Source: a virus. Taken from it: a stretch of 37,852 bases of DNA. This document shows, piece after piece, positions 3,315 to 37,852 of the stretch. The stretch is from IMG/VR virus record IMGVR_UViG_3300021560_000036, positions 1-37,852 of that record, one strand, 5' to 3'. Position numbers and translations under genes: made by a program. How positions within the stretch are numbered: position 1 is the stretch's first letter; the number at the start of each line of letters is the position of its first letter. Under the pieces are notes generated by a model, which had not been told where the DNA came from, did no database searches, and saw only the letters and a program-made list of their open reading frames with translations.

Positions 3315-4081
3315 CCAGCGACTCCTTTCAGATAGGTGAGCGGGAATGAGATCATGGGTTCGCCTATATGGAGAGGTCGTCCACGGTCTTTGACACTGGT
3401 GTAGAGGTACCGTCCTCTGAGGTCTTTATGGAGAAAGAGAGTCGAATCGAATTGGTGCTTGAGTCGCTTCTGCCCACTAGGTTTATGCCCAACTCCTCCA
3501 AACACCGAAATTGTTTCACGATCATCCCCAACGCTGCTCCTGCCGCCACCGCTTCCCGTTGATCGAGCAACCGGATCAGCAGTTGAGCAAGCGATAATGT
3601 GACACGGGGACTTATAGATGAATGGTCGCATAAAGGAAGAGTACAACTTATTGATGTACTTCCAGTCGGTCCACCCTCCGAACTCTGTATCGCGTTGAAG
3701 CTCGGTCTTGACACGGAGGAAGAAGGACCCGGTGTCTTCCCCGAAGACTTCCTGGGTGTAGTACTCCTGGACCGCGGGCCAGGCTTCTGAGGCAAGGTCA
3801 CAGACAAACCAATCATCACGATGGAGCTGAGGGAAGATTTTGGAGAGAGCGTCCCCGTACTCAGGCCACTCATACACCTCGAAGACGCTGATGTTTGAGA
3901 GACCATTGAGCGCGACGGATTTCGTATAGGACTTGTCGTTGTCGATAACGTAGATATGGGAGGGAGACTGAGTAGCGGAAAGCAGCTTGCCGAGTTCGGT
4001 GACGGCGTGGGATTTGCCGCAAGCCGGTTCGGAATAGAGGAGAATCCGTTCGCGCGCGGGAATGGAGGAGATAAAGGGCAT
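3299..4081 (-). CDS. Sak4-like (AAA_24 / RecA-fold) recombination ATPase
   Basis: Walker A is LLYSEPACGKSH. A hydrophobic strand plus Asp (WFVCDLASEAW) serves as Walker B. The length and context (next to a PD-(D/E)xK nuclease) are typical of phage Sak4-type ATPases. Confidence 0.6.
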   Translation of the reverse strand: MPFISSIPARERILLYSEPACGKSHAVTELGKLLSATQSPSHIYVIDNDKSYTKSVALNGLSNISVFEVYEWPEYGDALSKIFPQLHRDDWFVCDLASEAWPAVQEYYTQEVFGEDTGSFFLRVKTELQRDTEFGGWTDWKYINKLYSSFMRPFIYKSPCHIIACSTADPVARSTGSGGGRSSVGDDRETISVFGGVGHKPSGQKRLKHQFDSTLFLHKDLRGRYLYTSVKDRGRPLHIGEPMISFPLTYLKGVAGWQIQ

Positions 4082-6821: not shown

Positions 6822-7532
6822 CTATCTTAATGGACCGACGTTAGTGATAACTGCTTCCTTCCACCAGGACGGTAGCAGACCTCGATACCGTCGCCAGATG
6901 TTGTTGTGGAACTGCGTGTCGAGGATGTAGGACTCACAGAAGTCGTCATCAGAGCGCATCCCACGACCGGTCATTTGGACAAGAGACCTTATTGTCTGAA
7001 CGGCGTACCAGAGTTCCCCTCCTCTGACATGGAGGCGAGCAGATACTTGCTTGTCTCCAAGCGAGAGATAAGGGACCTTACAGACGACAATAGCCCGACA
7101 GTCATCTCCGGGAAGATCAATCCCTCGTTCCAGAGATGATGCCAGGAGAACAGCGGCAGGTTGCTGGAGATAACGGTGGATAGCGGGGTCTCGTTCGTAG
7201 GAAGATTCGTAAGCCACTCCGCGAAGTCTTCCAGCGTTTGAATTGACTCGGAGATACCGAGCGAGATCGTAGCTAACCGTGTGTACCAGGACTCGATCGT
7301 TCGGGTGTCGATTGCAGATGATATCGAGGGCAGTAGCGAGAGCTGGATAGGCGGTATCTCGTGTCTTATAGGTAACATTCGCAACTCCGTAGGGATAGAT
7401 GGGACGGAGGGCGGGGGGGAATGTTGATGGTACGGTTACAAGCTGGAAGGGACGAGACCGAGGGAAGCTGCCATTTCCTCGGCCGAAATGATCGTTGCAG
7501 ACATTAAGAGCCATTGTCGACCGTATCGCCAA
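6822..7532 (-). CDS. DinG/XPD-like helicase, C-terminal half (helicase domain 2); -1 frame relative to the N-terminal half
   Basis: Motif V-like SSLERGIDLPGDDCRAIVVCKVPY and motif VI QMTGRGMRSDDD. The meaningful sequence begins about RPFQLVTVPSTFPP, near 7450. Confidence 0.7.
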   Translation of the reverse strand: MAIRSTMALNVCNDHFGRGNGSFPRSRPFQLVTVPSTFPPALRPIYPYGVANVTYKTRDTAYPALATALDIICNRHPNDRVLVHTVSYDLARYLRVNSNAGRLRGVAYESSYERDPAIHRYLQQPAAVLLASSLERGIDLPGDDCRAIVVCKVPYLSLGDKQVSARLHVRGGELWYAVQTIRSLVQMTGRGMRSDDDFCESYILDTQFHNNIWRRYRGLLPSWWKEAVITNVGPLR

Positions 7533-8425
7533 AGATAGTCGTGGGCGTAGGGGGCGACGGAAATGGGCTTAAAGATGACGTCGTTGTCGCGATAGCCGTC
7601 GTACACCCAGTTTCCGGACATAAGACCAGTGAGAGGGTCAAGCAGCCGTCCGAGTTCCCGTGCAAAAGATAGGTGGCGCTTTTGGGCACGTAGTTTGCGA
7701 AGGTCAGGGCTGGGATCAAAAAGATTTCCTTGTTCGTCAAATCTAGCTCGGCCCACAATCTCCGAGCATTCCTGCGCCCAGTCACACCAACTCGCCATGA
7801 CGGTCTTTTTATCGGGGTACGGAAGGCCAAACTCTCGCATCCTTGACTCGGTGATGGAAACCTTGATGAACGACATGAGGACTGATTCGAGGGTGTCTAC
7901 CTCATCAATAACAACGAGATCACGGTTACGGAGGATGCCACCAAAGTTAAGCTCGTATAGCAGATAGAGAGAGTTCGCACAGACGACAGGTGAGAGAAGA
8001 GCATCGTATTTCGCGATCTCGTACGGACAGTCGGCGACAGGGTCGCACCAAGCGCAACGCCAGCCATCGTTAAACTTGCTCCGATTACAGTCCTCACAAG
8101 AGAGTTGGAGGTGAGCTGGACCAGACCGAAATCGTAGAGGATGATTGTGAGTGGGATAATTGGAGCGACCCTTGATAAGAGCAGCCGTAGGAAAATCCTT
8201 TCGGAACTGCTCTTGAAGTGAGAGGGAATGGCAGACATAGAGGGCTCTGGGGGCTAGATGTTGGCGGACGATGTCGGCGATGAGAGTCTTGCCGGAGCCG
8301 GTGGGTGCTTCGAGGAAGACGACCGGGCTGGACCGAAACGCTGCGAGGACATTGGCGATTGCGGTCTCTTGTTGGGGACGGAGTGAGGTGGCCCATGATG
8401 GGAGGGCAGAGAAGGAGAGCTGCAC
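7436..8425 (-). CDS. DinG/XPD-like Fe-S helicase, N-terminal half (helicase domain 1)
   Basis: Walker A EAPTGSGKT, a four-Cys cluster region (CEDC...CAWC...C), Walker B VVIDEVD and motif III LLMSAT. The ORF stops at 7436 right after ...AASLGLVPSSL. Confidence 0.75.
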   Translation of the reverse strand: MQLSFSALPSWATSLRPQQETAIANVLAAFRSSPVVFLEAPTGSGKTLIADIVRQHLAPRALYVCHSLSLQEQFRKDFPTAALIKGRSNYPTHNHPLRFRSGPAHLQLSCEDCNRSKFNDGWRCAWCDPVADCPYEIAKYDALLSPVVCANSLYLLYELNFGGILRNRDLVVIDEVDTLESVLMSFIKVSITESRMREFGLPYPDKKTVMASWCDWAQECSEIVGRARFDEQGNLFDPSPDLRKLRAQKRHLSFARELGRLLDPLTGLMSGNWVYDGYRDNDVIFKPISVAPYAHDYLWRYGRQWLLMSATIISAEEMAASLGLVPSSL

Positions 8426-8430
8426 CCTGG

Positions 8431-8465
8431 GTTGTCAGTCGTCAGTTGTCAGTCGTCAGTCGTCG
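8431..8465. repeat. Heptamer tandem repeat GT(T/C)GTCA x4-5 (14-mer x2) in the RHH-helicase spacer
   Basis: GTTGTCA GTCGTCA GTTGTCA GTCGTCA GTCGTCG. On the minus strand this gives TGA every 7 nt. Confidence 0.85.
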
Positions 8466-9037
8466 TCCGGTTCCCAGTCGATCTTGAGGAGACGGGATTT
8501 AATGAAGGGAGAAATGTGCTCCTCGGCGACAAGTTGCAAGGCGGCGTCGTGGAGTTGCTGAAGGGCGATGCGGTCGTTGCGACACTTGTGACGAGCCTCC
8601 TTGAAACGGTCAACAAGGGAAGCGTTGTCCATCACGGTATCTACCATTGCCATTGACGCATTGACGCGGTCGGAGAAGGCATTGAGACCATCGAGATAGC
8701 CTGATGTAAAGTCGTGCTCAGATTGTCGAACAGTGATGAGTAGGGCGTAGCGGATGAAGTTGGAGAGGGACGGGTAGCGACTGTCAAAGCCACGATGACC
8801 GACGACTTTCTCGATACGACCGAGCGTTTGTGGATCAACCCAGCATTGGATGAGACGGGCCTTCCCGAAGCGCTTGAGGAGACGACCACGGATCTGATCG
8901 TCGTCAGGGTGGAGTTCTTCATCTTGAGTCCGGACGAGGGAGATAAGCTGGTGCGGCGTCATGGAGTCAAAGTCGAGCGGGTCGTCAAGACCGTCCTCGA
9001 ATTGGTTGTTGAAGGCAGTGCGCTTGATCGAAGGCAT
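8456..9037 (-). CDS. Putative ribbon-helix-helix (CopG/Arc-like) DNA-binding protein; first gene of the replication module
   Basis: ATG at 9037, 10 nt after AGGAGG. The segment RLIQCWVDPQTLGRIEKVVGHRG...SLSNFIRYALLITV fits a strand-helix-helix pattern. Confidence 0.45.
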   Translation of the reverse strand: MPSIKRTAFNNQFEDGLDDPLDFDSMTPHQLISLVRTQDEELHPDDDQIRGRLLKRFGKARLIQCWVDPQTLGRIEKVVGHRGFDSRYPSLSNFIRYALLITVRQSEHDFTSGYLDGLNAFSDRVNASMAMVDTVMDNASLVDRFKEARHKCRNDRIALQQLHDAALQLVAEEHISPFIKSRLLKIDWEPDDD

Positions 9038-9061
9038 GGCGAAAAGACCTCCTGGGGAGAA

Positions 9062-9106
9062 AACCACAACATGTGCCCCTCCGAGCCGCCCACAACCACA
9101 ACATGT
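9062..9106. promoter_or_regulatory. Two exact 13-bp direct repeats AACCACAACATGT (9062-9074 and 9094-9106) just upstream of the RHH gene
   Basis: Exact copies with a 32-bp period, lying 25-70 nt upstream of the start codon at 9037. Each ends in the palindrome ACATGT. Confidence 0.5.
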
Positions 9107-9213
9107 AGTGGGTGGGGGGGTGCGTGTGGAGGCGGCAAAAGAGGTCTAATCCCAGGTCAGCGGCCTGTCAAGGGGGGAAAATGTTAGGGAGCAGTTGCCT
9201 GAGCAAGCGCTGA

Positions 9214-9248
9214 GGGGGGAAGGGGAAGGGGAAGGGGAAGGGGAAAGG
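9214..9248 (+). repeat. (GGGGAA)5 microsatellite; a canonical G-quadruplex motif in non-coding DNA
   Basis: GGGGGGAAGGGGAAGGGGAAGGGGAAGGGGAAAGG read directly. It abuts the AT-rich stretch at 9249-9270. Confidence 0.9.
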
Positions 9249-9351
9249 TATCTTTTATTTTAAAGCTTACGCATACTGTCGACCCCTTACTACCACCCTT
9301 ACTACCCTTACTCTTGACCAAACGCTAACACCACACTAACAACACCCTAAC
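9249..9351. repeat. Candidate replication origin: AT-rich stretch plus two sets of triple direct repeats
   Basis: The AT-rich stretch is tatcttttattttaaagctta. CCCTTACT occurs 3 times (9284, 9296, 9305). CTAAC occurs 3 times at an exact 11-bp spacing (9325, 9336, 9347). The region is non-coding and is C-rich on the + strand, unlike the rest of the genome. Confidence 0.45.
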
Positions 9352-9375
9352 ATTTGGAACTTATCCACAGGGTAG

Positions 9376-9657
9376 CTACTCTTGTTCCGAAGACCGCCCA
9401 CCGAGATAGGTAGCGACCGCTCCAATAGACGCACCGATCACCGTTCCGAGGAGTTGGCCCTCAGTCGCAGTGATCTCGAAGGCACGGTCTACCACCGATC
9501 CGATGGATGCGGTGAGGACGGCTGCTGATGCGCCGAAGGCGAGGATGATCGCGACGAGGTCTCGGCCACTGAGGCGATGAAGTTGGTGGTGGTTGTTGTG
9601 GTTGTTACTTCCGTTGTTGGGGTGGGGGTCGTTGGGGTCGAGAGGGCCGTTGGTCAA
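9376..9657 (-). CDS. Holin-like small membrane protein (93 aa, two predicted TM helices)
   Basis: Hydrophobic segments LVAIILAFGASAAVLTASIGSVV and LLGTVIGASIGAVATYLGG. It lies immediately downstream of the endolysin and overlaps it by 4 nt. Confidence 0.55.
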   Translation of the reverse strand: MTNGPLDPNDPHPNNGSNNHNNHHQLHRLSGRDLVAIILAFGASAAVLTASIGSVVDRAFEITATEGQLLGTVIGASIGAVATYLGGRSSEQE

Positions 9658-10403
9658 GTAGCGAGCTTCTGACCGTTCTGACCGTTGGCGGTGATGTTTG
9701 ACCAGCGGTAGGTGCGTGTCATTGGGGTGGAGGCGTCCGCAGGCTTAGTGGTGATTTCCCAAAGGTTGCCTTGGGGATCGACGCCGTAGATGAGGTTGTT
9801 GCCGTCTTTGTCGAGCATGCAGGTAAGGGGCATGAGATCCTCGATTTCTGGATGTGGTGGGGTAGGGGTGGGGGGTTTGGGGGCTGGAGTTGGGTTGGTG
9901 ATGCGGTTGAGGATGGTCTGGCGGTTGTTCTTGCGGAGGTCACAGGGACAGCCGGTGGGGAAGCGACCACCTGGTGCGTTGTCTGAGCCGGGGAGACGAT
10001 GGTAGCCGAAGCCGTGCATACCTTTTTGCTCACAGAGGATGGCGGGCCAGTTATGACGGGCCATGCCCTCGGAATAGAGGGTGGCGAAGGCGTCGATCAT
10101 GGCGTCGGACATTGGGTCGGCATAGGGAGGAGTGGCACAGCCCTGGGTCTCGACGCCGACGTAGTTGACGTTCAGGTCCCGCGCATGCCAGGCGACAACC
10201 GAGGTGTCAACGTACTGTTCGATGTGGCCGGACTGGGTGATGTAGAAGTGGGCGGAAACTTGGGATGAGGGGTCATTGAATCTGGGATAGAGAGTGGAGG
10301 AATCGGTGACCGCATGGTGGATGAGGCAACCGATGTTGGGGGAGAGGGTACCTCCGGTGTTGGTGGTGATTGGTTTGGGGGTTGCACAACTGAACCAGGC
10401 CAT
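9654..10403 (-). CDS. N-acetylmuramoyl-L-alanine amidase endolysin (Amidase_2/PGRP fold) with a Pro-rich linker and C-terminal domain
   Basis: IHHAV...SAHFYI...GHIEQYV...AWHA...NYVGVE...GYH...GCPC matches the T7-lysozyme-type zinc amidase pattern. GGAAGGAGA lies 9 nt upstream of the ATG. Confidence 0.8.
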   Translation of the reverse strand: MAWFSCATPKPITTNTGGTLSPNIGCLIHHAVTDSSTLYPRFNDPSSQVSAHFYITQSGHIEQYVDTSVVAWHARDLNVNYVGVETQGCATPPYADPMSDAMIDAFATLYSEGMARHNWPAILCEQKGMHGFGYHRLPGSDNAPGGRFPTGCPCDLRKNNRQTILNRITNPTPAPKPPTPTPPHPEIEDLMPLTCMLDKDGNNLIYGVDPQGNLWEITTKPADASTPMTRTYRWSNITANGQNGQKLAT

Positions 10404-10705
10404 AAGGGATCGTCTCCTTCCTGTGATGAGGGTGGGGGTGGTGGCGGGTCGACCCAGTTAATGATGTCCGGTTCATCAAGGTAGCCGATGATGTCATCGG
10501 GGTCGAGCTTGAAGTACCGGCAGATGTTGACGAGGTGATGAGGCGGGATCTCCTTACGCCCGAGGGAGTAGGTAGAGAGGGTTGTTGGATGGACCGAACA
10601 TTGACCCGCTACCCACCATTGAGGATGTTCGTCTTGGAGAAGGAGCTTACGGAGCTTGGTGATGCGGTTGGTGTTGGAGCTGGGGTTGAGGTTTGGGTTT
10701 GACAT
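10172..10705 (-). CDS. XRE-family helix-turn-helix regulator. The ORF runs 230 nt into the amidase gene in another frame
   Basis: The HTH_3-like core is LRKLLLQDEHPQWWVAGQCSVHPTTLSTYSLGRKEIPPHHLVNICRYFKL. GGGAG lies 5 nt upstream of the ATG. The tail after about residue 100 is Pro-rich and low-complexity. Confidence 0.65.
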   Translation of the reverse strand: MSNPNLNPSSNTNRITKLRKLLLQDEHPQWWVAGQCSVHPTTLSTYSLGRKEIPPHHLVNICRYFKLDPDDIIGYLDEPDIINWVDPPPPPPSSQEGDDPLWPGSVVQPPNQSPPTPEVPSPPTSVASSTMRSPIPPLSIPDSMTPHPKFPPTSTSPSPATSNSTLTPRLSPGMRGT

Positions 10706-30238: not shown

Positions 30239-30646
30239 CTAACCCTCTTGTTGGTTCGGCAAGGTCGACTCGTGGTCCGAGAAGCCGGAGGGATTCGATT
30301 CCCTTTCGTCTAATGCGTGGAGCTGGCGGGTTCGCTCGCTGTCCTCGTACTCCTCGGTCGTTGTCGCCAGGCGGGTCTGGTAGAAGAGGATCCGGCGATC
30401 CAGCTCCTCCTGCTCGCGTCGGAGGGTCTCCTCCATGGCGAGCGGCATCATCGTCGGGTCCTGCCAGGCCGGGGAGATTGGGGAGGTTGGGGAGCCGGTG
30501 CGGGCGTCTGCGGGGCTTCCCGGCTGCGGGAAGGCCCGAGAGCTTGCGCGGGGGTCTGACGGGTCCAGGGCCTCCAGGTCCTCCGGGTACTCCAGTCTGA
30601 GGCTGCGGAGCACCAACTTCTCCAGAAACTCCGTCCGCACGATCAC
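30239..30646 (-). CDS. Coiled-coil protein (about 135 aa) in the +1 frame relative to the leader ORF
   Basis: GTG at 30646 follows GGAGGGGGG. The sequence is protein-like (VIVRTEFLEKLVLRSLRLEYPEDLEAL...MEETLRREQEELDRRILFYQTRLATTTEEYEDSERTRQLHALDE). Confidence 0.4.
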   Translation of the reverse strand: MIVRTEFLEKLVLRSLRLEYPEDLEALDPSDPRASSRAFPQPGSPADARTGSPTSPISPAWQDPTMMPLAMEETLRREQEELDRRILFYQTRLATTTEEYEDSERTRQLHALDERESNPSGFSDHESTLPNQQEG

Positions 30647-30647
30647 G

Positions 30648-30842
30648 CCCCCCTCCGATTCCCCCAATCCCCCGCTCGATCTCGGCCAACTGCCGCTCGA
30701 TTTCACGCTCCTCCCACTCGCTCGCCCATCCTGCCTCCCCATTCTCCATCTCACCGCTATCCACGTCCCCATCCCAGCCACTACCACTGCCACCACCACT
30801 GCCAATATCACTACCACTATCCATGTCGAAGTCGGCATCCAT
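30648..30842 (-). CDS. Acidic leader ORF segment (first 65 codons). The same frame stays open down to 29952
   Basis: ATG at 30842 lies 4 nt after GGAGG. Translation begins MDADFDMDSGSDIGSGGGSGSGWDGDVDSGEMENGEAGWASEWEEREIERQLAEIERG. Downstream this frame turns into Pro/Gly/Arg low-complexity sequence. Confidence 0.4.
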
Positions 30843-30920
30843 CTTCCCTCCGTACAAATTGCACGGTCGATTCGGTCACTTGCCGTTTATTTGCCGCTCA
30901 TTTCAAACATTTCGCCCCGC

Positions 30921-30950
30921 ATTCTGACCATCTTCCCACCCCCCTGTCAA
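30921..30950 (-). promoter_or_regulatory. Candidate sigma70-type promoter for the late operon
   Basis: On the minus strand: TTGACA (30950-30945), an 18-nt spacer, then CAGAAT (30926-30921). This is about 70-80 nt upstream of the first late ORF. Confidence 0.3.
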
Positions 30951-31060
30951 TCTCTCTCTCTCCCCTCCAGGACCCCAAAATCCACTGTCCGTTGAGGCCC
31001 GCTCTATCGCTGGGGGGGAGGCAGGGCGTGGGGCTTTGGGATTGTTGTGTGTGCAAACAG

Positions 31061-31109
31061 TGCGTGTACAGGCAAGGGGGAGAGCGCGGGAAGGTTGCTT
31101 GTACAAGGG
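31061..31109. promoter_or_regulatory. Two copies of a TGYNTGTACA(N0-3)AGGG motif in the divergent control region
   Basis: tgcgTGTACAggcAAGGGggagag at 31061 and tgctTGTACAAGGGagag at 31096. Related copies occur at 10757-10770 and 25375-25390. Confidence 0.4.
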
Positions 31110-31168
31110 AGAGTCCCCCGGAGGGTGCATGGTCATGCAAGGGGATGGGTGAATATACCTAATAGTTT

Positions 31169-31206
31169 GTTCATCTATCGTTCACTTGAATGTTACCTGC
31201 TGTTCA
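31169..31206. promoter_or_regulatory. Phased GTTCA repeats in the AT-rich stretch upstream of the first early gene
   Basis: GTTCA occurs at 31169, 31180 and 31202 (spacings of 11 and 22 bp). The inverted TGAAC occurs twice at 31281 and 31290. Confidence 0.4.
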
Positions 31207-31276
31207 TGTTCCCGTGAGACAATCACAGGTGATCCGCACGGGTGGCGGGAACAGGCGAACCGGGGAAGGAGGTGAC

Positions 31277-31843
31277 ATGGTGAACATGGTGAACGTGGAG
31301 CGCGGCGAACAGGGTGCGTGGCACGCGGTGACCGGGGGGGACTTCGGTGACCGCGTGGCGCGCATCGTGCGCGTCGCGACAACGGAAGGAACGGACATGA
31401 GTGAATCAACAGCAGTAGCGGACGTGGTCGAGCTTCACGCGGACGAGCTATCAGAGACGGTAGCGAGTCTGGAGAGCATGCTTGCCGCGAAGCTCGCGGC
31501 CGGTGGGGCCGATGCGTCCAAGCTCTCGACGGGTGGGATGAGCGTCAAACTGATGCGAGCCCAAGCCGCGATCCGGAGCACTTGCGAGATCCTCGCCGAT
31601 GGGTTTGGGGAGTACGTGAGGACACTTCCCGCCCTCCCGGAGGATTTCAAGCTGGCGTTCGGGCCGATCACGGTCCCCGAGCCCTTGGACTTCTCCTCAA
31701 AGCGGGGGAGCGACAAAGACCAGCTCGAAACGTGGCTGAGCAAAGTGATCCCGCTCGGCCACGAGGACTACCGGTGGACGGTCAATCACCTGGGGCGCAA
31801 TGACCAGCTTCAGGCGAGCATCACGCGCAAGCGCGGACACTGA
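31277..31843 (+). CDS. Hypothetical early protein (188 aa)
   Basis: ATG directly follows GGAAGGAGGTGAC. A 9-bp duplication ATGGTGAAC x2 sits at the start. An alternative start is at 31397. Confidence 0.55.
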   Translation: MVNMVNVERGEQGAWHAVTGGDFGDRVARIVRVATTEGTDMSESTAVADVVELHADELSETVASLESMLAAKLAAGGADASKLSTGGMSVKLMRAQAAIRSTCEILADGFGEYVRTLPALPEDFKLAFGPITVPEPLDFSSKRGSDKDQLETWLSKVIPLGHEDYRWTVNHLGRNDQLQASITRKRGH

Positions 31844-31862
31844 GAGGGCTGGAAGTGCCATC

Positions 31863-31911
31863 GGCCCGGCTCCGGGGAGTGATCCCCGGAGCCGGGCCTC
31901 TTGGCATTTTT
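31863..31911 (+). terminator. Rho-independent terminator
   Basis: Perfect 15-bp stem GGCCCGGCTCCGGGG / CCCCGGAGCCGGGCC with a 6-nt loop, followed by TCTTGGCATTTTT. Confidence 0.8.
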
Positions 31912-32006
31912 GGACGGGTGGAAGGGATGGGGAAAGCAGGATCAAGTAAGCGCCGGAGTCGGTGAGTCGGTGAGTTGTGGAACGGGAGAACGGAAGGAGT
32001 TGGGGA

Positions 32007-32334: not shown

Positions 32335-32406
32335 GATCCGTTCGTCTAGTGGTGAGGACGGCAGATTTTCAATCTGCAAACATGGGTTCGACTCCCATAC
32401 GGATCA
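32335..32406 (+). tRNA. tRNA-Glu(UUC): tRNA-Glu, anticodon UUC (72 nt, no encoded CCA)
   Basis: Cloverleaf folded by hand. The acceptor stem is GATCCGT/ACGGATC. The D arm is GTCT-AGTGGTGA-GGAC. The anticodon arm is GCAGA-TTTTCAA-TCTGC. The variable loop is AAAC. The T arm is ATGGG-TTCGACT-CCCAT. The discriminator is A. Confidence 0.88.
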
Positions 32407-32422
32407 CTGAGTTGGTACAGTC

Positions 32423-32487
32423 GGGAGGGTCAAGCGGTGTTCTTCCGTGCCGGTGTGACCCTCCCGCCTGTGCCAACTTGGCACAGG
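32423..32487 (+). ncRNA. Two tandem hairpins between the tRNA and the next gene (structured leader or processing element)
   Basis: The first hairpin is GGGAGGGTCA (32423-32432) paired with TGACCCTCCC (32456-32465). The second is CCTGTGCC-aactt-GGCACAGG (32467-32487). The RBS of the next gene follows. Confidence 0.4.
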
Positions 32488-32515: not shown

Positions 32516-32959
32516 ATGGCGAAGTACTCGACCAGAGATGGACGGGTGATCGTGGAGACGACGGACGAAGAGGATGTCGTCATCATGCTGACCGAGTTCA
32601 TCGTGGATATGGACGATCCCGCTACCTATGCGAGAGCCCAGATGCTGAAGATGGGGACGGGGTTGGCGAACATCTTCAGTGTTCTGGAGATGTCCCTCTG
32701 CCAGGAGTACGGGGAGGGAGCGCACAACGCGCTGAAGGCCGTGCTGATGAAGCGGCAGTCGGTGTGTGAGAGGGGAAGCCAGATGTTGGGCGTTCCCGAG
32801 GACGATGTGGAGTTCGTACGGGAGACGGCGAACTCCGTGGCCGAGATGCGTGTCCATGGGGATGCGCTGAAGGGGAAGCAGGTGAGTCAAGCGGAACGTG
32901 AGATCGAGAAGAAGGTGAACGATCTCGATTTCGGTAGGGACCTCCCCGGTTATTTGTGA
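32516..32959 (+). CDS. Hypothetical acidic early protein (147 aa)
   Basis: GGAAGGAG lies 7 nt upstream of the ATG. The sequence is protein-like. Confidence 0.65.
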   Translation: MAKYSTRDGRVIVETTDEEDVVIMLTEFIVDMDDPATYARAQMLKMGTGLANIFSVLEMSLCQEYGEGAHNALKAVLMKRQSVCERGSQMLGVPEDDVEFVRETANSVAEMRVHGDALKGKQVSQAEREIEKKVNDLDFGRDLPGYL

Positions 32960-33105
32960 TTGGGGCGGCACATCGGCCGCATCCATGCGTGAGTGTGGGT
33001 GCGGCCTCTTGTGCTGGGTGGTCCAGCACGCGGCACGGAGGGATCCGTGTTGTGGGTAATGCGGCGTACTCTCCGTGCCATCCAAACGGAAGAGGGAAAC
33101 AGGAG

Positions 33106-34662
33106 ATGCCAAAAGTTCAGTTGCAGTACAGCGAAGAAGAGCGGACACTCCAGCAGATCCGTGAATTGTTGGCGGCGGCGAGTGGAAACTTGAAGCAGGA
33201 CGACGACGTTATCTTCGAGGGCCGGAAGTATGTATTGCCGGAGCGAGAAGAGAGCAAGCGGACTGCCGGTATCCATTTGATCGAGATGGCCGACGAAGAA
33301 GAGGAGCGGCAGCGATTCTCACGGGAGTACAAGTACCGTCCATGGGATGGAGCTGTGGCGACTCAGCGGGTGTTGGTGAAGGCATACGGCCACATGCACC
33401 AGCGGAACAGCCTGTTTCAGATGGCGGAGACGCGAGAAGTTCAGGTTGGGCCGGACGAGTTGATCAGCGTGCCGTGGGGCGAGTTTGACGTTCCAGGGCT
33501 GGATGGCGTGGTGTTCGTGTCGATGGCGGCGAGCGGGGACAATGGACCCGTGTACCTACTGTCAGCAACGGGACCACGCCGTTTCCGAGACGAGATCAAC
33601 GGTGTTTTCAACTTGGTGCAGGAAGAACTTGAAGAGAGTTCGATCTACCGTGGCAAGGCGTTCAACGGTGCCGAGAACCCAGACTTCTTGGATCTAGGGA
33701 AGTTCGATCCCTCGAAGGTGGTGTACTCGGAGGAAGTGTTGACCGAGTTGGACGCCAATGTCTGGTGCTTGATCCGATACCCGGAGCAGAACCGGGAGCT
33801 GGGTTTGCCGTTGAAGAGGGCCGTGGTGTTTGAGGGTCCGTACGGGACTGGGAAGACACTCGGCGCAAAGTTGACCGCGAAGGTTGCGGTGGACAACGGC
33901 TGGACGTTCATTTTCGTGAGACCAGGAATTGACGATCTCCGGGTGGCATTTCAGACGGCGAAGTTGTATGCGCCGTGTGTGGTGCATGTCGAGGATGTCG
34001 AGACACTTGGCGGATATGGTGGCAGTAGGGACCATATGAGCCGGGTGCTGGACATGTTCGACGGGATCGACACGAAGGACTCGGATGTCATCTGCGTGGC
34101 GACGACAAACCACAAGGAGGAGATCCACGCCGGGATGTTGAGGCCGGGAAGGATCGACGGTGTGATCCATATCGGAGCGCTGGACGCTGCGGGGATACGG
34201 AGGCTTGTTGAAGTCTCAGTGTTGCCGGGGCAACTGGAGGAAGAGATGGATTGGGCTGCCATTGCGGTTGCGATGGACGGCTACATGCCAGCTTTCGCGA
34301 AGGAGGCGATCAACCGGGCGCAGCGGTACATGCTCAGAAGGAACAAGGGCAAGATTGGACCGCTAGCGACGAGTGATTTCGTCCACGCCGCGAGGGGGCT
34401 GAGAACTCAGTTCGAGTTGCAGCAGAGTGCGAAGGACAAGCCAGAGGACAAGGGCTTGGACGGGTATGTGCGGGAGATGCTTGATGAGATCGTCACGGCC
34501 GCAAGTGATGGTATCAGGGAGGAGCTACCGGACATGGACAGTGCTGCGAGCGAGATTGTTGACCAGGTCCAGGGCAACACCCAGAGCGATATGAGGGAGT
34601 TGCTGAACGAGACGTCGGTGTATGACCAGAACGGAGAGTACTCCGGGAACTTGTCGGTCTGA
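33106..34662 (+). CDS. Classical-clade AAA+ ATPase (FtsH/Cdc48-like ATPase module, 518 aa) with unknown N- and C-terminal domains
   Basis: Walker A is VVFEGPYGTGKTLGAKL. The Walker B region is APCVVHVEDVETL (compare FtsH APCIIFIDEIDAV). Sensor 1 is ICVATTNH. The second region of homology is MLRPGRIDGVIHIG. Confidence 0.85.
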   Translation: MPKVQLQYSEEERTLQQIRELLAAASGNLKQDDDVIFEGRKYVLPEREESKRTAGIHLIEMADEEEERQRFSREYKYRPWDGAVATQRVLVKAYGHMHQRNSLFQMAETREVQVGPDELISVPWGEFDVPGLDGVVFVSMAASGDNGPVYLLSATGPRRFRDEINGVFNLVQEELEESSIYRGKAFNGAENPDFLDLGKFDPSKVVYSEEVLTELDANVWCLIRYPEQNRELGLPLKRAVVFEGPYGTGKTLGAKLTAKVAVDNGWTFIFVRPGIDDLRVAFQTAKLYAPCVVHVEDVETLGGYGGSRDHMSRVLDMFDGIDTKDSDVICVATTNHKEEIHAGMLRPGRIDGVIHIGALDAAGIRRLVEVSVLPGQLEEEMDWAAIAVAMDGYMPAFAKEAINRAQRYMLRRNKGKIGPLATSDFVHAARGLRTQFELQQSAKDKPEDKGLDGYVREMLDEIVTAASDGIREELPDMDSAASEIVDQVQGNTQSDMRELLNETSVYDQNGEYSGNLSV

Positions 34663-34672
34663 TGGTCTAAGG

Positions 34673-34713
34673 ACACAGGATTGCCCCTCGCGATGCGGGG
34701 GGTTTTCCTGTGT
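34673..34713 (+). terminator. Rho-independent terminator (nested hairpin)
   Basis: The outer stem is ACACAGGA/TCCTGTGT. The inner stem is CCCCTCGC-gat-GCGGGGGG, followed by TTTT. Confidence 0.7.
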
Positions 34714-34719
34714 TGTTAG

Positions 34720-34992
34720 ATGGATGGGATGGGAGTGAGTGGGATGGGTGAGTATGAGGATTACCCGGTGAGGGAACTGATCGCCGGAGCCAACGAAGCA
34801 GTGATGAAGGCCGCGCAGGAGGGGATTGAGGCGCATGTGTACTTCAAGGCAACCTGCCCGAAGTGTGGGGAACGGTGTGTGTTCAGCGTCGCGGACACGG
34901 TGTTCGAGCAGATGGAGTGCAGCGCGTGCGGATGGGAGTTCCCGTTTGTAGAGGGGAACTACATGCTGGTGTACGGCGGAGAACTGCCGTGA
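34720..34992 (+). CDS. Zinc-ribbon protein (90 aa or less; start uncertain, alternative ATG at 34744)
   Basis: CPKCGERC...CSACG are two CxxC pairs. The N-terminus is G-tract repeat. Confidence 0.55.
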   Translation: MDGMGVSGMGEYEDYPVRELIAGANEAVMKAAQEGIEAHVYFKATCPKCGERCVFSVADTVFEQMECSACGWEFPFVEGNYMLVYGGELP

Positions 34993-35954
34993 GTGGGGTT
35001 GGGAGTGGGTGGGAGTCGGGAGTAAGTGTCAGGCCCGAGGACGTCCCCAAGCTGAGGGAGTTGTTGGTTGGGGATTGGAGTGAGGGTGGGGTATTGGCCG
35101 AGATCGCCCCGATCTTGAATGTGAGTGGGGACGTGAATGAGTACTTCGCCGATGAGGAAAGGTTCTGGGCCGAGAAGGCGGACCTATGGTTTGTCGGTGA
35201 GGAGATGTGCGCGTTACTGGAGCACGCGAGGACAGAACTCCCCCCGACGACGTTGACAAGTGGGTTGGTGACCCATGATGGGAGTTACCGGAGTGCGGGG
35301 CTGGTGGTGTTCGCCGACCCGATTTTCGGGATGAGTGCGAAGCCTGATGAGCCGCCGATTCCGGTTGGAGCGATGACCTGGCACCCTGCCGAGTATTCCG
35401 GGTGGAATGCGGGGAGGGGGAGGATGGGGCTGAGTATTTTGCTGTACTTCGTTGAGCCGGGGGAGAAGCGGTTATTGCCGCTCGGTCGGGTGAGTTGGCT
35501 GGAGGGCGAGGACACCGATGCGCTATTAGGCGGGTTGAGTGAGTTGCAGGAAGCATCGATGGCCGAGGATCGAAGGACACTGGCCGCGATGCTGTTATTG
35601 GCGAGTCAGCCCGGTGTGGCGGAAGTGGGGGAGAAGCTGCCTCCGAGACAACAGAGGAGAGAGGCAGAGAGGAAGGGGAGGAAACTCAGCCCGGTGAGGG
35701 TGATCCGGCTGAGAGCTGCCGTGGAAAGGGAGAGGAGTGGGAGAGGGGATGGGAGTGGGAGTGGGGATGGAGATGGAGAAGGAGGGAGGAAGAGGGAGTA
35801 CCACCAGAGATGGGTGGTGACGGGGCATTGGCGGCAACAGGCGTACGGGAAGGGCTGGACACTACGACGTCCGAGATGGATCGCACCGTATGTGAAGGGC
35901 CCGAAGGAGGCGCCGATGGACACGAGGCCCACGGTAAAGGCATGGGTGAAATAG
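34989..35954 (+). CDS. Hypothetical protein (about 321 aa) with a basic C-terminal WVVTGHWRQQAYGKGW..RRPRWIAPYVKGP motif
   Basis: GTG overlaps the upstream stop (GTGA). The body of the protein looks protein-like. An internal GDGSGSGDGDGEGG repeat is present. Confidence 0.55.
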   Translation: MSGVGSGWESGVSVRPEDVPKLRELLVGDWSEGGVLAEIAPILNVSGDVNEYFADEERFWAEKADLWFVGEEMCALLEHARTELPPTTLTSGLVTHDGSYRSAGLVVFADPIFGMSAKPDEPPIPVGAMTWHPAEYSGWNAGRGRMGLSILLYFVEPGEKRLLPLGRVSWLEGEDTDALLGGLSELQEASMAEDRRTLAAMLLLASQPGVAEVGEKLPPRQQRREAERKGRKLSPVRVIRLRAAVERERSGRGDGSGSGDGDGEGGRKREYHQRWVVTGHWRQQAYGKGWTLRRPRWIAPYVKGPKEAPMDTRPTVKAWVK

Positions 35955-37617: not shown

Positions 37618-37744
37618 GACGTTGGTGTCGGCTGCGTTACAGGACATTGACGTGGTGACGGAATTGGTGAGAAAGTGGGAGTTGAGGAAGGGGAAGGAGA
37701 AGGGGATGGGGAAGGGAATGGGGAGTGCAAGCGGAAAGGTATAG
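37514..37744 (+). CDS. Coiled-coil protein (76 aa)
   Basis: MSTSGGQEERERERERRTEEERDLYRAKGLLRHAETLVSAALQDIDVVTELVRKWEL... ends in the KEKGMGKGMG tail. Confidence 0.45.
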   Translation: MSTSGGQEERERERERRTEEERDLYRAKGLLRHAETLVSAALQDIDVVTELVRKWELRKGKEKGMGKGMGSASGKV

Positions 37745-37852
37745 GAACCTAAGACAATGGGCAAGGATCAAGGAGCTGTTGACGCGTGAGGATGTGGGGG
37801 AGATGGAGAAGATGGAGGAGGTGGAAGAAAGAGGAGAGGGAACGGGAAAGGA
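37725..37852 (+). CDS. 5' part of the junction-spanning small ORF (continues at 2-160)
   Basis: See feature 2-160. The reading frame is continuous only if the two window ends are joined through the 123-bp repeat. Confidence 0.35.
   Translation, partial: MQAERYRNLRQWARIKELLTREDVGEMEKMEEVEERGEGTGK
37730..37852. repeat. Terminal direct repeat, right copy
   Basis: Identical to 1-123. Confidence 0.95.

Follow-up and report, generated by a model that had tools for sequence, protein, structure and literature searches.

A repeat-rich island upstream of the early genes of an uncultivated podovirus-like phage joins a putative, recurrent promoter to phage-specific repeat arrays and is a candidate replication origin

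The 37,852-nt stretch of DNA analyzed here (IMG/VR record IMGVR_UViG_3300021560_000036; hereafter, the window) is a phage-like genome, with a unique length of ~37.7 kb after subtraction of a 123-bp exact terminal repeat. It belongs to an uncultivated, podovirus-like phage. The subject of this study is a repeat-rich gap between genes at positions 9038–9375 (hereafter, the island), which an earlier sequence-based description (the original prediction) had proposed to be a candidate origin plus promoter/operator. Our analyses partly support this proposal: we read the island as a composite early-control region, in which a host-type promoter conserved in the phage family is combined with phage-specific binding-site arrays, and as the best, albeit unproven, origin candidate. 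In the explanation that we consider moderately probable, the 193-aa protein encoded directly downstream binds the repeats and controls the early genes, and the distal half of the island is the place where an origin would most likely be found.

The gene order around the island is that of a junction between two units. Most genes lie on the minus strand, and a plus-strand module occupies ~31.2–37.7 kb. The phage-type genes in the window include those for a P22-like portal, a terminase, and an Amidase_2 endolysin, together with one tRNA-Glu. In gene sense (minus strand), the late part runs from the structural genes through the genes of a 1300-aa protein, a helix-turn-helix (HTH) protein, and the endolysin to that of a 93-aa membrane protein, after which follow the island, the 193-aa gene, and the other early genes: an XPD/DinG-like helicase (in two open reading frames, ORFs), a Cas4-like exonuclease, a Sak4-like protein, and an ERCC4 nuclease. 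The late unit (structural and lysis genes) and the early unit run in the same direction, with the island between them, in agreement with its predicted position between the lysis and replication modules. Within the gap we found only a 45-aa TTG-initiated ORF (9184–9321, minus strand), upstream of which no Shine-Dalgarno sequence was seen on reading the sequence, and short plus-strand ORFs. None was judged credible, as had been proposed.

Of the two functions proposed for the island, that of a promoter/operator is the better supported. The original prediction had noted a minus-strand TTGACA and read the region as a promoter/operator, a reading that we now regard as quite likely to be correct. 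The TTGACA (9166–9171) is a perfect −35 element preceded by a T-rich lead-in, and a 17-nt spacer separates it from a −10-like TAGACC (9143–9148), which begins with TAG; transcription would be predicted to start near 9136. In the relatives L002, L003, L005, L020, L022, L024, L120, and L122, a TTGACA or near match, followed after 17 or 18 nt by TAGnnT or TATnnT, is located 51–83 nt before the start of the orthologous gene, and the T-rich stretch before the −35 element is common to these promoters. The strict pattern TTGAC-N16-18-TAnnnT is enriched between −160 and −30 of the orthologous gene, a zone that makes up 1.3% of the sequence but contains seven of the 39 sense-strand matches (P = 7e-7). 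In L001, reading by eye revealed TTGCTT-18-TAGGCT at about −130. The reading of the TTGACA as part of a putative sigma-70-type promoter, counterparts of which precede the orthologous gene in relatives, is thus well supported.

The comparison with relatives drew on 80 loci of viral contigs, eight reached via the protein collection, and a further three short loci. A DNA similarity search against phage and plasmid records gave no match, and the nearest cultured phages are ~25% identical or less in the helicase and portal. The N-terminal half of the helicase has 518 metagenomic homologs, many of them on contigs of 35–39 kb. The gap between the lysis genes and the gene of the ~190-aa protein is retained in all eight close relatives (8/8), with a length of 170–414 bp. 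Upstream of the promoter, each phage carries private repeats, direct and/or inverted, with a short motif of its own: AGATATCC/GGATATCT in L001 (~9 copies), TTAACTGTTTACG in L002, GGAACTTCC in L004, TAGACC in L024, CCCCGTCAC in L030, and GTGTAGAC in L120. The repeat coverage is 3.5–5 standard deviations above that of shuffled sequences in the window, L001, L002, L004, L006, and L008, and is weaker in L003, L005, and L007. Conservation of the repeat architecture had been suggested as a check of the original prediction; a repeat-rich gap does recur in most relatives, with motifs that are phage-specific.

The repeats of the island itself (Table 1) are well above the background. The coverage by direct repeats (8-mers) is 97 nt, compared with 21.6 ± 15.4 nt in shuffled sequences. 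The two exact 13-bp direct repeats, the three copies of CCCTTACT, and the three copies of CTAAC on the plus strand were all found as originally described. The window contains five copies of CCCTTACT against 0.70 expected, three of which fall in the island, and the CTAAC triplet with its exact 11-bp spacing occurs nowhere else in the window and in none of 100 shuffles. The described AT-rich stretch and the C-rich, G-poor composition of the plus strand at 9250–9370 were likewise recovered; the latter segment has 41 C and 9 G (skew −0.64), and only 0.18% of 121-bp windows are as low. The predicted (GGGGAA)5 array is present, but the exact repeat is confined to 30 bp, and the span of 9214–9248 given before had taken in a flanking G and AGG. 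The array could form a G-quadruplex on the plus strand. It is, however, only one of five four-G-run motifs and one of 33 canonical plus-strand G-quadruplex motifs, so that a special G-quadruplex element is not indicated. The minus strand has no such motif, which is an extreme strand asymmetry.

Four features had escaped the original prediction: the DnaA box, an inverted 13-mer with its palindrome, the −10-like TAGACC, and an inverted 11-mer, AAATGTTAGGG. The 11-mer, at 9179–9189, is the complement of 9345–9355 at 11 of 11 positions and ends 7 bp upstream of the −35 element; according to our own estimate, an exact inverted pair of this length is expected ~0.014 times in 338 bp. The second 13-mer copy and the inverted copy together make up a 20-bp palindrome centred on ACATGT (CCACWACATGTWGTGG). 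Copies of the repeats stand both beside and downstream of the promoter, in support of the promoter/operator reading. The RNA fold of the window's leader is no better than that of shuffled sequences (z = −0.9), which favors a DNA site over an RNA structure for the 13-mer/palindrome element, and we read the element as a putative DNA operator. The DNA fold of the distal half is also unremarkable (z = −0.6). In Rfam, the sole match of the window at the gathering score is a tRNA (32335–32406), and a permissive search of the island gave one chance match (13.5 bits, E = 0.71). These two folds and the absence of an Rfam match led us to discard a structured RNA and a DNA hairpin as explanations of the island. 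In L001, the closest relative among the viral contigs, the leader (7350–7450) after its promoter is predicted to fold into an RNA hairpin of high stability (−60 kcal/mol, z = −4.5) that has no equivalent in the window, and a second leader hairpin of L001 covers the Shine-Dalgarno sequence.

Table 1. Positions of the elements of the island and of the adjoining genes in the window
Feature	Position	Strand	Remarks
193-aa protein gene	8456–9037	−	First gene of the early/replication unit; fast-evolving; basic RGR arm; candidate reader of the repeats
Shine-Dalgarno AGGAGG	9048–9053	−	10 nt before the ATG at 9037; same 10-nt spacing in L001
Operator-like leader element (13-mers and palindrome)	9062–9113		
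AACCACAACATGT direct repeat, two copies	9062–9074, 9094–9106	+	32-bp period; also read as ACATGTTGTGGTT
Inverted third 13-mer copy	9101–9113		Overlaps the second copy; 2 mismatches
Predicted sigma-70-type early promoter, TTGACA-17 nt-TAGACC	9143–9171	−	−35 at 9166–9171, −10-like at 9143–9148
Inverted copy of the distal-array motif	9179–9196	+	18-nt arms, 83% complementary
Perfect (GGGGAA)5	9216–9245	+	(TTCCCC)5 in gene sense; 45–79 bp upstream of −35
AT-rich tract, candidate DNA-unwinding element	9245–9275		9249–9269 is 86% A+T
AGTAAGGG direct units, three copies (CCCTTACT on +)	9284–9312	−	Starts at 9284, 9296, and 9305; spaced 12 and 9 bp
GTTAGnGTGnT 11-bp direct units, three copies (CTAAC on +)	9319–9351	−	One-helical-turn phasing
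Perfect DnaA box TTATCCACA (TGTGGATAA in gene sense)	9361–9369	+	7 nt after the stop codon of the membrane protein gene
93-aa membrane protein gene	9376–9657	−	Holin-like by position; weak glycine-zipper transmembrane match; last gene of the late/lysis unit; bounds the gap
Amidase_2 endolysin gene	9654–10403	−	Upstream of the 93-aa gene in gene sense

The 193-aa protein is the likeliest candidate for recognizing the variable repeats. Orthologs of ~190 aa, found with a hidden Markov model, are encoded directly upstream of the helicase in ~30 loci and are only 13–25% identical, which makes this protein a likelier reader of variable repeats than the HTH protein. The latter, a small protein of the Cro/C1 type (10403–10705, minus strand, between the 1300-aa protein and the endolysin), is 43–54% identical across relatives and has a nearly invariant recognition helix, and is thus an unlikely reader of repeats that differ from phage to phage. 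Its place at the end of the late operon is an odd one for a regulator. In the sequence of the 193-aa protein, a basic RG(R/K) arm and a short strand are followed by two helices, with a conserved DPRY in the loop between them, and by a long helical tail. The original prediction had labeled it ribbon-helix-helix (RHH)-like, and the alignment register and the strand-helix-helix pattern do fit that fold. The protein gave no match in Pfam, PHROG, NCBIfam, or PDB. In the search for close relatives, the protein database returned only the protein itself, the alignment query three proteins, and an exhaustive HMMER search six; no close relatives were found in the viral contigs. Evidence from co-variation of protein and repeats is suggestive but mixed. 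In L005 and L122, whose gaps can otherwise hardly be aligned, GTTATACNGTTA is kept in two copies with identical spacing, and their 190-aa proteins are 40% identical with a common QFNxKxD in the putative recognition strand. The 190-aa proteins of L002 and L120, in contrast, are 51% identical and yet the repeat motifs differ, an exception to which we return below.

On the basis of these features, the following course of events can be proposed. Host RNA polymerase would start at TTGACA-17-TAGACC (9171–9143) and transcribe the early unit, the first product of which, the putative DNA-binding protein of 193 aa, would bind the phage-specific repeats. The bound sites may be those of the GTTAG type (three distal copies and one inverted copy beside the −35 element) and the 13-mer/palindrome element of the leader, probably together with the triplet of AGTAAGGG. 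Binding would feed back on the promoter, possibly via DNA looping. The distal half, with its DnaA box, triplet arrays, and most easily melted DNA, has an iteron-type anatomy and would be the best candidate site for recruitment of the host replisome.

That the island is in fact an origin is a separate claim, which we hold only tentatively, leaning somewhat against it. The order of its elements mirrors that of iteron-type origins: a DnaA box, two triplet arrays, an AT tract, and a promoter flanked by an inverted copy of a repeat. Direct repeats in three copies with roughly helical phasing are present twice (GTTAG at 11 bp and AGTAAGGG at 9–12 bp). Adjacent to them lies an easily unwound AT-rich element: the least stable 20-bp duplex in the genome is at 9249–9269 (z = 4.3) and the least stable 100-bp stretch at 9243–9343. 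The DnaA box is the sole perfect copy in 37.8 kb, where 0.10 would be expected. After detrending, the skews have extrema ~130–210 bp from the island (GC-skew minimum at 9501, AT-skew maximum at 9582, keto minimum at 9581). Furthermore, the island heads the replication/recombination module of a phage that relies on the host replisome; the profile searches found no DNA polymerase, primase, or known initiator among the window proteins. In L006, two tandem perfect DnaA boxes with the same orientation as that of the window are located in the syntenic gap, and L006 and the window have CCCTGTGGATAA in common. Across 30 loci, three of six perfect DnaA boxes fall within the upstream 450 nt (P = 0.0013), which effectively represents two independent events. 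The origin part of the original prediction thus gains a DnaA box, a least stable duplex, and a repeat architecture conserved in relatives, and is plausible but unproven.

Several observations weigh against the explanation given above, in its promoter, protein, or origin part. The −10 element TAGACC is devoid of the conserved final T, a generic promoter/terminator scan reported no promoter in the island at its threshold (its one hit was a weak hairpin covering the Shine-Dalgarno sequence), and the promoter is 134 nt from the ATG compared with 51–83 nt in most relatives. The 193-aa protein matches no known initiator class, neither winged-helix Rep nor lambda O-like. Its RHH membership was not confirmed by Pfam, a PDB profile search, hhalign (probability 0.5%, E = 0.12 against Arc, Mnt, CopG, and omega, four sequences entered by hand), or AlphaFold2 (pLDDT 48); the RHH label fits the sequence pattern. 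The disagreement between L002 and L120 also belongs here. As for the origin, an extremum of the cumulative skew at the island had been expected, but the raw GC skew rises monotonically without one; the minimum at 9501 appears only after detrending and coincides with a boundary of gene modules that differ in composition. A second, comparable and very unstable AT-rich site is found at 31149–31211 in a divergent gap, and G-rich hexamer repeats are common in the genome. Perfect DnaA boxes are present in the gap of only two of 30 loci (the window and L006); across the family, boxes with one mismatch show no upstream enrichment (1/79), for which reason we rejected the notion of DnaA boxes as a family trait. 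The boxes of L006 occupy the position of other phages' private repeats and may therefore be an operator motif of L006 rather than a means of DnaA recruitment.

Among the alternatives, the strongest is that the island is a transcriptional control region only, i.e., an early promoter with multi-site operator arrays for phage and host regulators, and that replication starts elsewhere or by recombination. We consider this alternative rather doubtful but worth serious attention. The repeat arrays of the relatives are located directly upstream of the −35 element, as operators would be; the early module is rich in recombination genes (Cas4-like, Sak4-like, and ERCC4), which fits recombination-dependent replication; and the raw skew has no extremum at the island. 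Host LexA boxes point in the same direction. GAAC-N4-GTTC is the consensus of the Cheo-type LexA box, and four of six perfect boxes in the relatives fall in the syntenic gap (P = 5.6e-5; in L002, L003, and L122). One-mismatch boxes are present in the gaps of L005, L011, and L012, whereas the upstream 450 nt of the window contain no LexA box even when one mismatch is allowed. The boxes suggest that some relatives may be under SOS-linked control in hosts using this LexA motif. A function in control alone would, however, leave unexplained both the unique DnaA box and the least stable AT tract, which is 113–134 nt upstream of the inferred start and thus too far for an UP element. It would also still require a site for recruitment of the host replisome, and we found no better candidate than the island.

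A more specific version of the origin claim goes further than a candidate site, and we think it unlikely. In this version, the island would be the origin of a phage family devoid of a polymerase, and the initiator would be not a winged-helix Rep but the fast-evolving RHH-like protein with an AT-hook-like arm. Acting with host DnaA on several very short iteron classes, this protein would melt the AT tract and pass the DNA on to the split helicase and/or replication proteins of the host. It would also repress its own promoter via the inverted copy next to the −35 element.

The island might also be a concatemer junction or packaging site, at which, similar to the situation in T7-like phages, physical ends with short repeat arrays would separate the last late gene from the first early one. 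Its location between the lysis and early genes of a largely one-directional genome would suit such a role, and the contigs of the distant relatives L024, L027, L030, and L087 end ~0.3–1.4 kb upstream of the helicase. We nevertheless regard it as very improbable. The contig starts of ~11 close relatives cluster 20–24.6 kb upstream of the helicase, which corresponds to ~30.5–32 kb in the window; the window assembles through the island and has its 123-bp terminal repeat elsewhere; and the portal, being P22-like, points to headful packaging initiated near the terminase genes. L123, an independently assembled 15,975-bp contig of this phage (SRR6831574), is identical over 9037–9245 and ends exactly at the hexamer array. 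This break is probably a k-mer assembly artefact at a perfect tandem repeat of 30 bp.

With regard to physical ends, the 123-bp exact direct repeat (1–123 and 37730–37852) either reflects an overlap from circular assembly or is a genuine terminal repeat. At ~30500–32000, the minus-strand late genes and the plus-strand module diverge from a gap that contains the least stable 30–60-mers in the genome (31149–31211) and the detrended AT-skew minimum (31215). A GC skew below −0.3 in 121-bp windows is found in three regions: 30555–31029, 3437–3605, and the island. The GC skew is positive nearly genome-wide, even across the plus-strand genes at 32956–35954, and thus does not simply track the coding strand. 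The ~30500–32000 region may hold physical ends or a packaging site and is an alternative origin candidate.

Slightly less probable still is a plasmid-style partition (centromere) site, at which a ParR-, ParG-, or omega-like RHH protein would bind the tandem repeats and so maintain an extrachromosomal prophage. Short direct repeats with roughly helical phasing upstream of the gene of a small, putatively RHH-like protein would be in keeping with this, as would the lack of a detectable integrase among the ORFs scanned. The 193-aa gene is followed by a helicase gene, however, rather than by a gene for a ParA/ParM-type ATPase, and the sole AAA protein is Cdc48/FtsH-like and encoded ~24 kb away on the other strand. 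This protein, a classical AAA+ ATPase of 568 aa (32956–34662, plus strand), has its greatest similarity to the ATPase domains of FtsH and of Cdc48/p97 (D2) (E = 5e-33, PDB). It is a member of phrog_10440 (no known function) and has a weak match to the model of the anti-phage ATPase IteA. We had considered it as an alternative initiator and rejected it on account of its likeness to Cdc48/FtsH.

Least probable of all is that the repeats are mostly a non-functional slippage spacer, with only the promoter being functional, in a genome that is prone to G-rich microsatellites: despite 95 tandem-repeat calls and the one-strand G-quadruplex motifs in the genome, and despite the fact that 22 of 218 window tiles of the same size match the direct-repeat coverage of the island, the four motif classes, some exactly phased and including the exact inverted 11-mer beside the −35 element, the recurrence of the repeat-rich architecture in most relatives, and the motif kept between the diverged gaps of L005 and L122 argue against this idea.

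Some further features of the genome were recorded. The XPD/DinG-like helicase (minus strand, 6822–8425) is encoded as an N-terminal half (7436–8425) and a Helicase_C_2 half (6822–7532), which overlap by 97 nt in different frames. The halves are also separate in most relatives, where one or two small ORFs often intervene, and a minority of homologs are fused (520–566 aa). Four cysteines, invariant in the window and L001–L008, likely bind an Fe-S cluster, as judged from the protein sequences. The tRNA-Glu (UUC) gene at 32335–32407 is directly followed by an inverted repeat of 23 nt (32410–32478, 91% complementary), and a perfect 16-nt inverted repeat (31863–31898) directly follows the ORF at 31190–31843; both inverted repeats look like terminators.

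The regulation and replication of this uncultivated lineage were previously unstudied. The early promoter, the likely operator sites, and the origin candidate provide testable handles, namely a predicted transcription start, protein-DNA pairs, and a replication fragment, and the LexA and DnaA boxes in the gap give clues to the hosts and, for some relatives, to SOS-linked control. Apart from its occurrence in an unstudied lineage, the island is an ordinary kind of phage control region, and its parts can be compared with several known systems. In phages such as GIL01 and CTXphi, early promoters are controlled by host LexA. L002, L003, and L122 resemble these phages in having GAAC-N4-GTTC near the same promoter, whereas the window has no LexA box and carries a different palindrome, CCACWACATGTWGTGG.

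The layout of RK2 oriV comprises DnaA boxes, iterons, and an unwinding element (PMC4980987). The same order of elements as in iteron-type theta origins (RK2 oriV, P1 oriR, pSC101, and F ori2, with lambda ori as the phage case), where an autoregulated rep gene adjoins the origin, is found in the island. It differs from them in that its repeats are shorter (cores of 5–11 bp compared with iterons of 17–22 bp) and of several classes, in that it has a single DnaA box, and in that the neighboring protein has no similarity to winged-helix Rep or lambda O; its replication activity is putative only. In lambda, moreover, the origin is inside the O gene, unlike in the window. Inverted partial iterons are found at the rep promoters of F and pSC101.

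A second comparison is with RHH repressors that occupy arrays of tandem sub-sites at the promoters of their own genes, such as omega of pSM19035 (7-bp heptads), MetJ (8-bp metboxes), Arc and Mnt of P22, and ParR at parC of R1. The 193-aa protein is longer than these repressors, with a helical C-terminal part of ~100 residues and the conserved DPRY insertion in the loop between the helices, and its RHH fold is putative. It resembles them in its sequence pattern, in which a strand and two helices accompany a basic N-terminal arm. The sub-sites in the island likewise recur two to five times, as direct and inverted copies that either precede or overlap the predicted sigma-70 promoter of the putative binder's own gene, and, as with RHH repressors, both the protein and the sites turn over fast between relatives.

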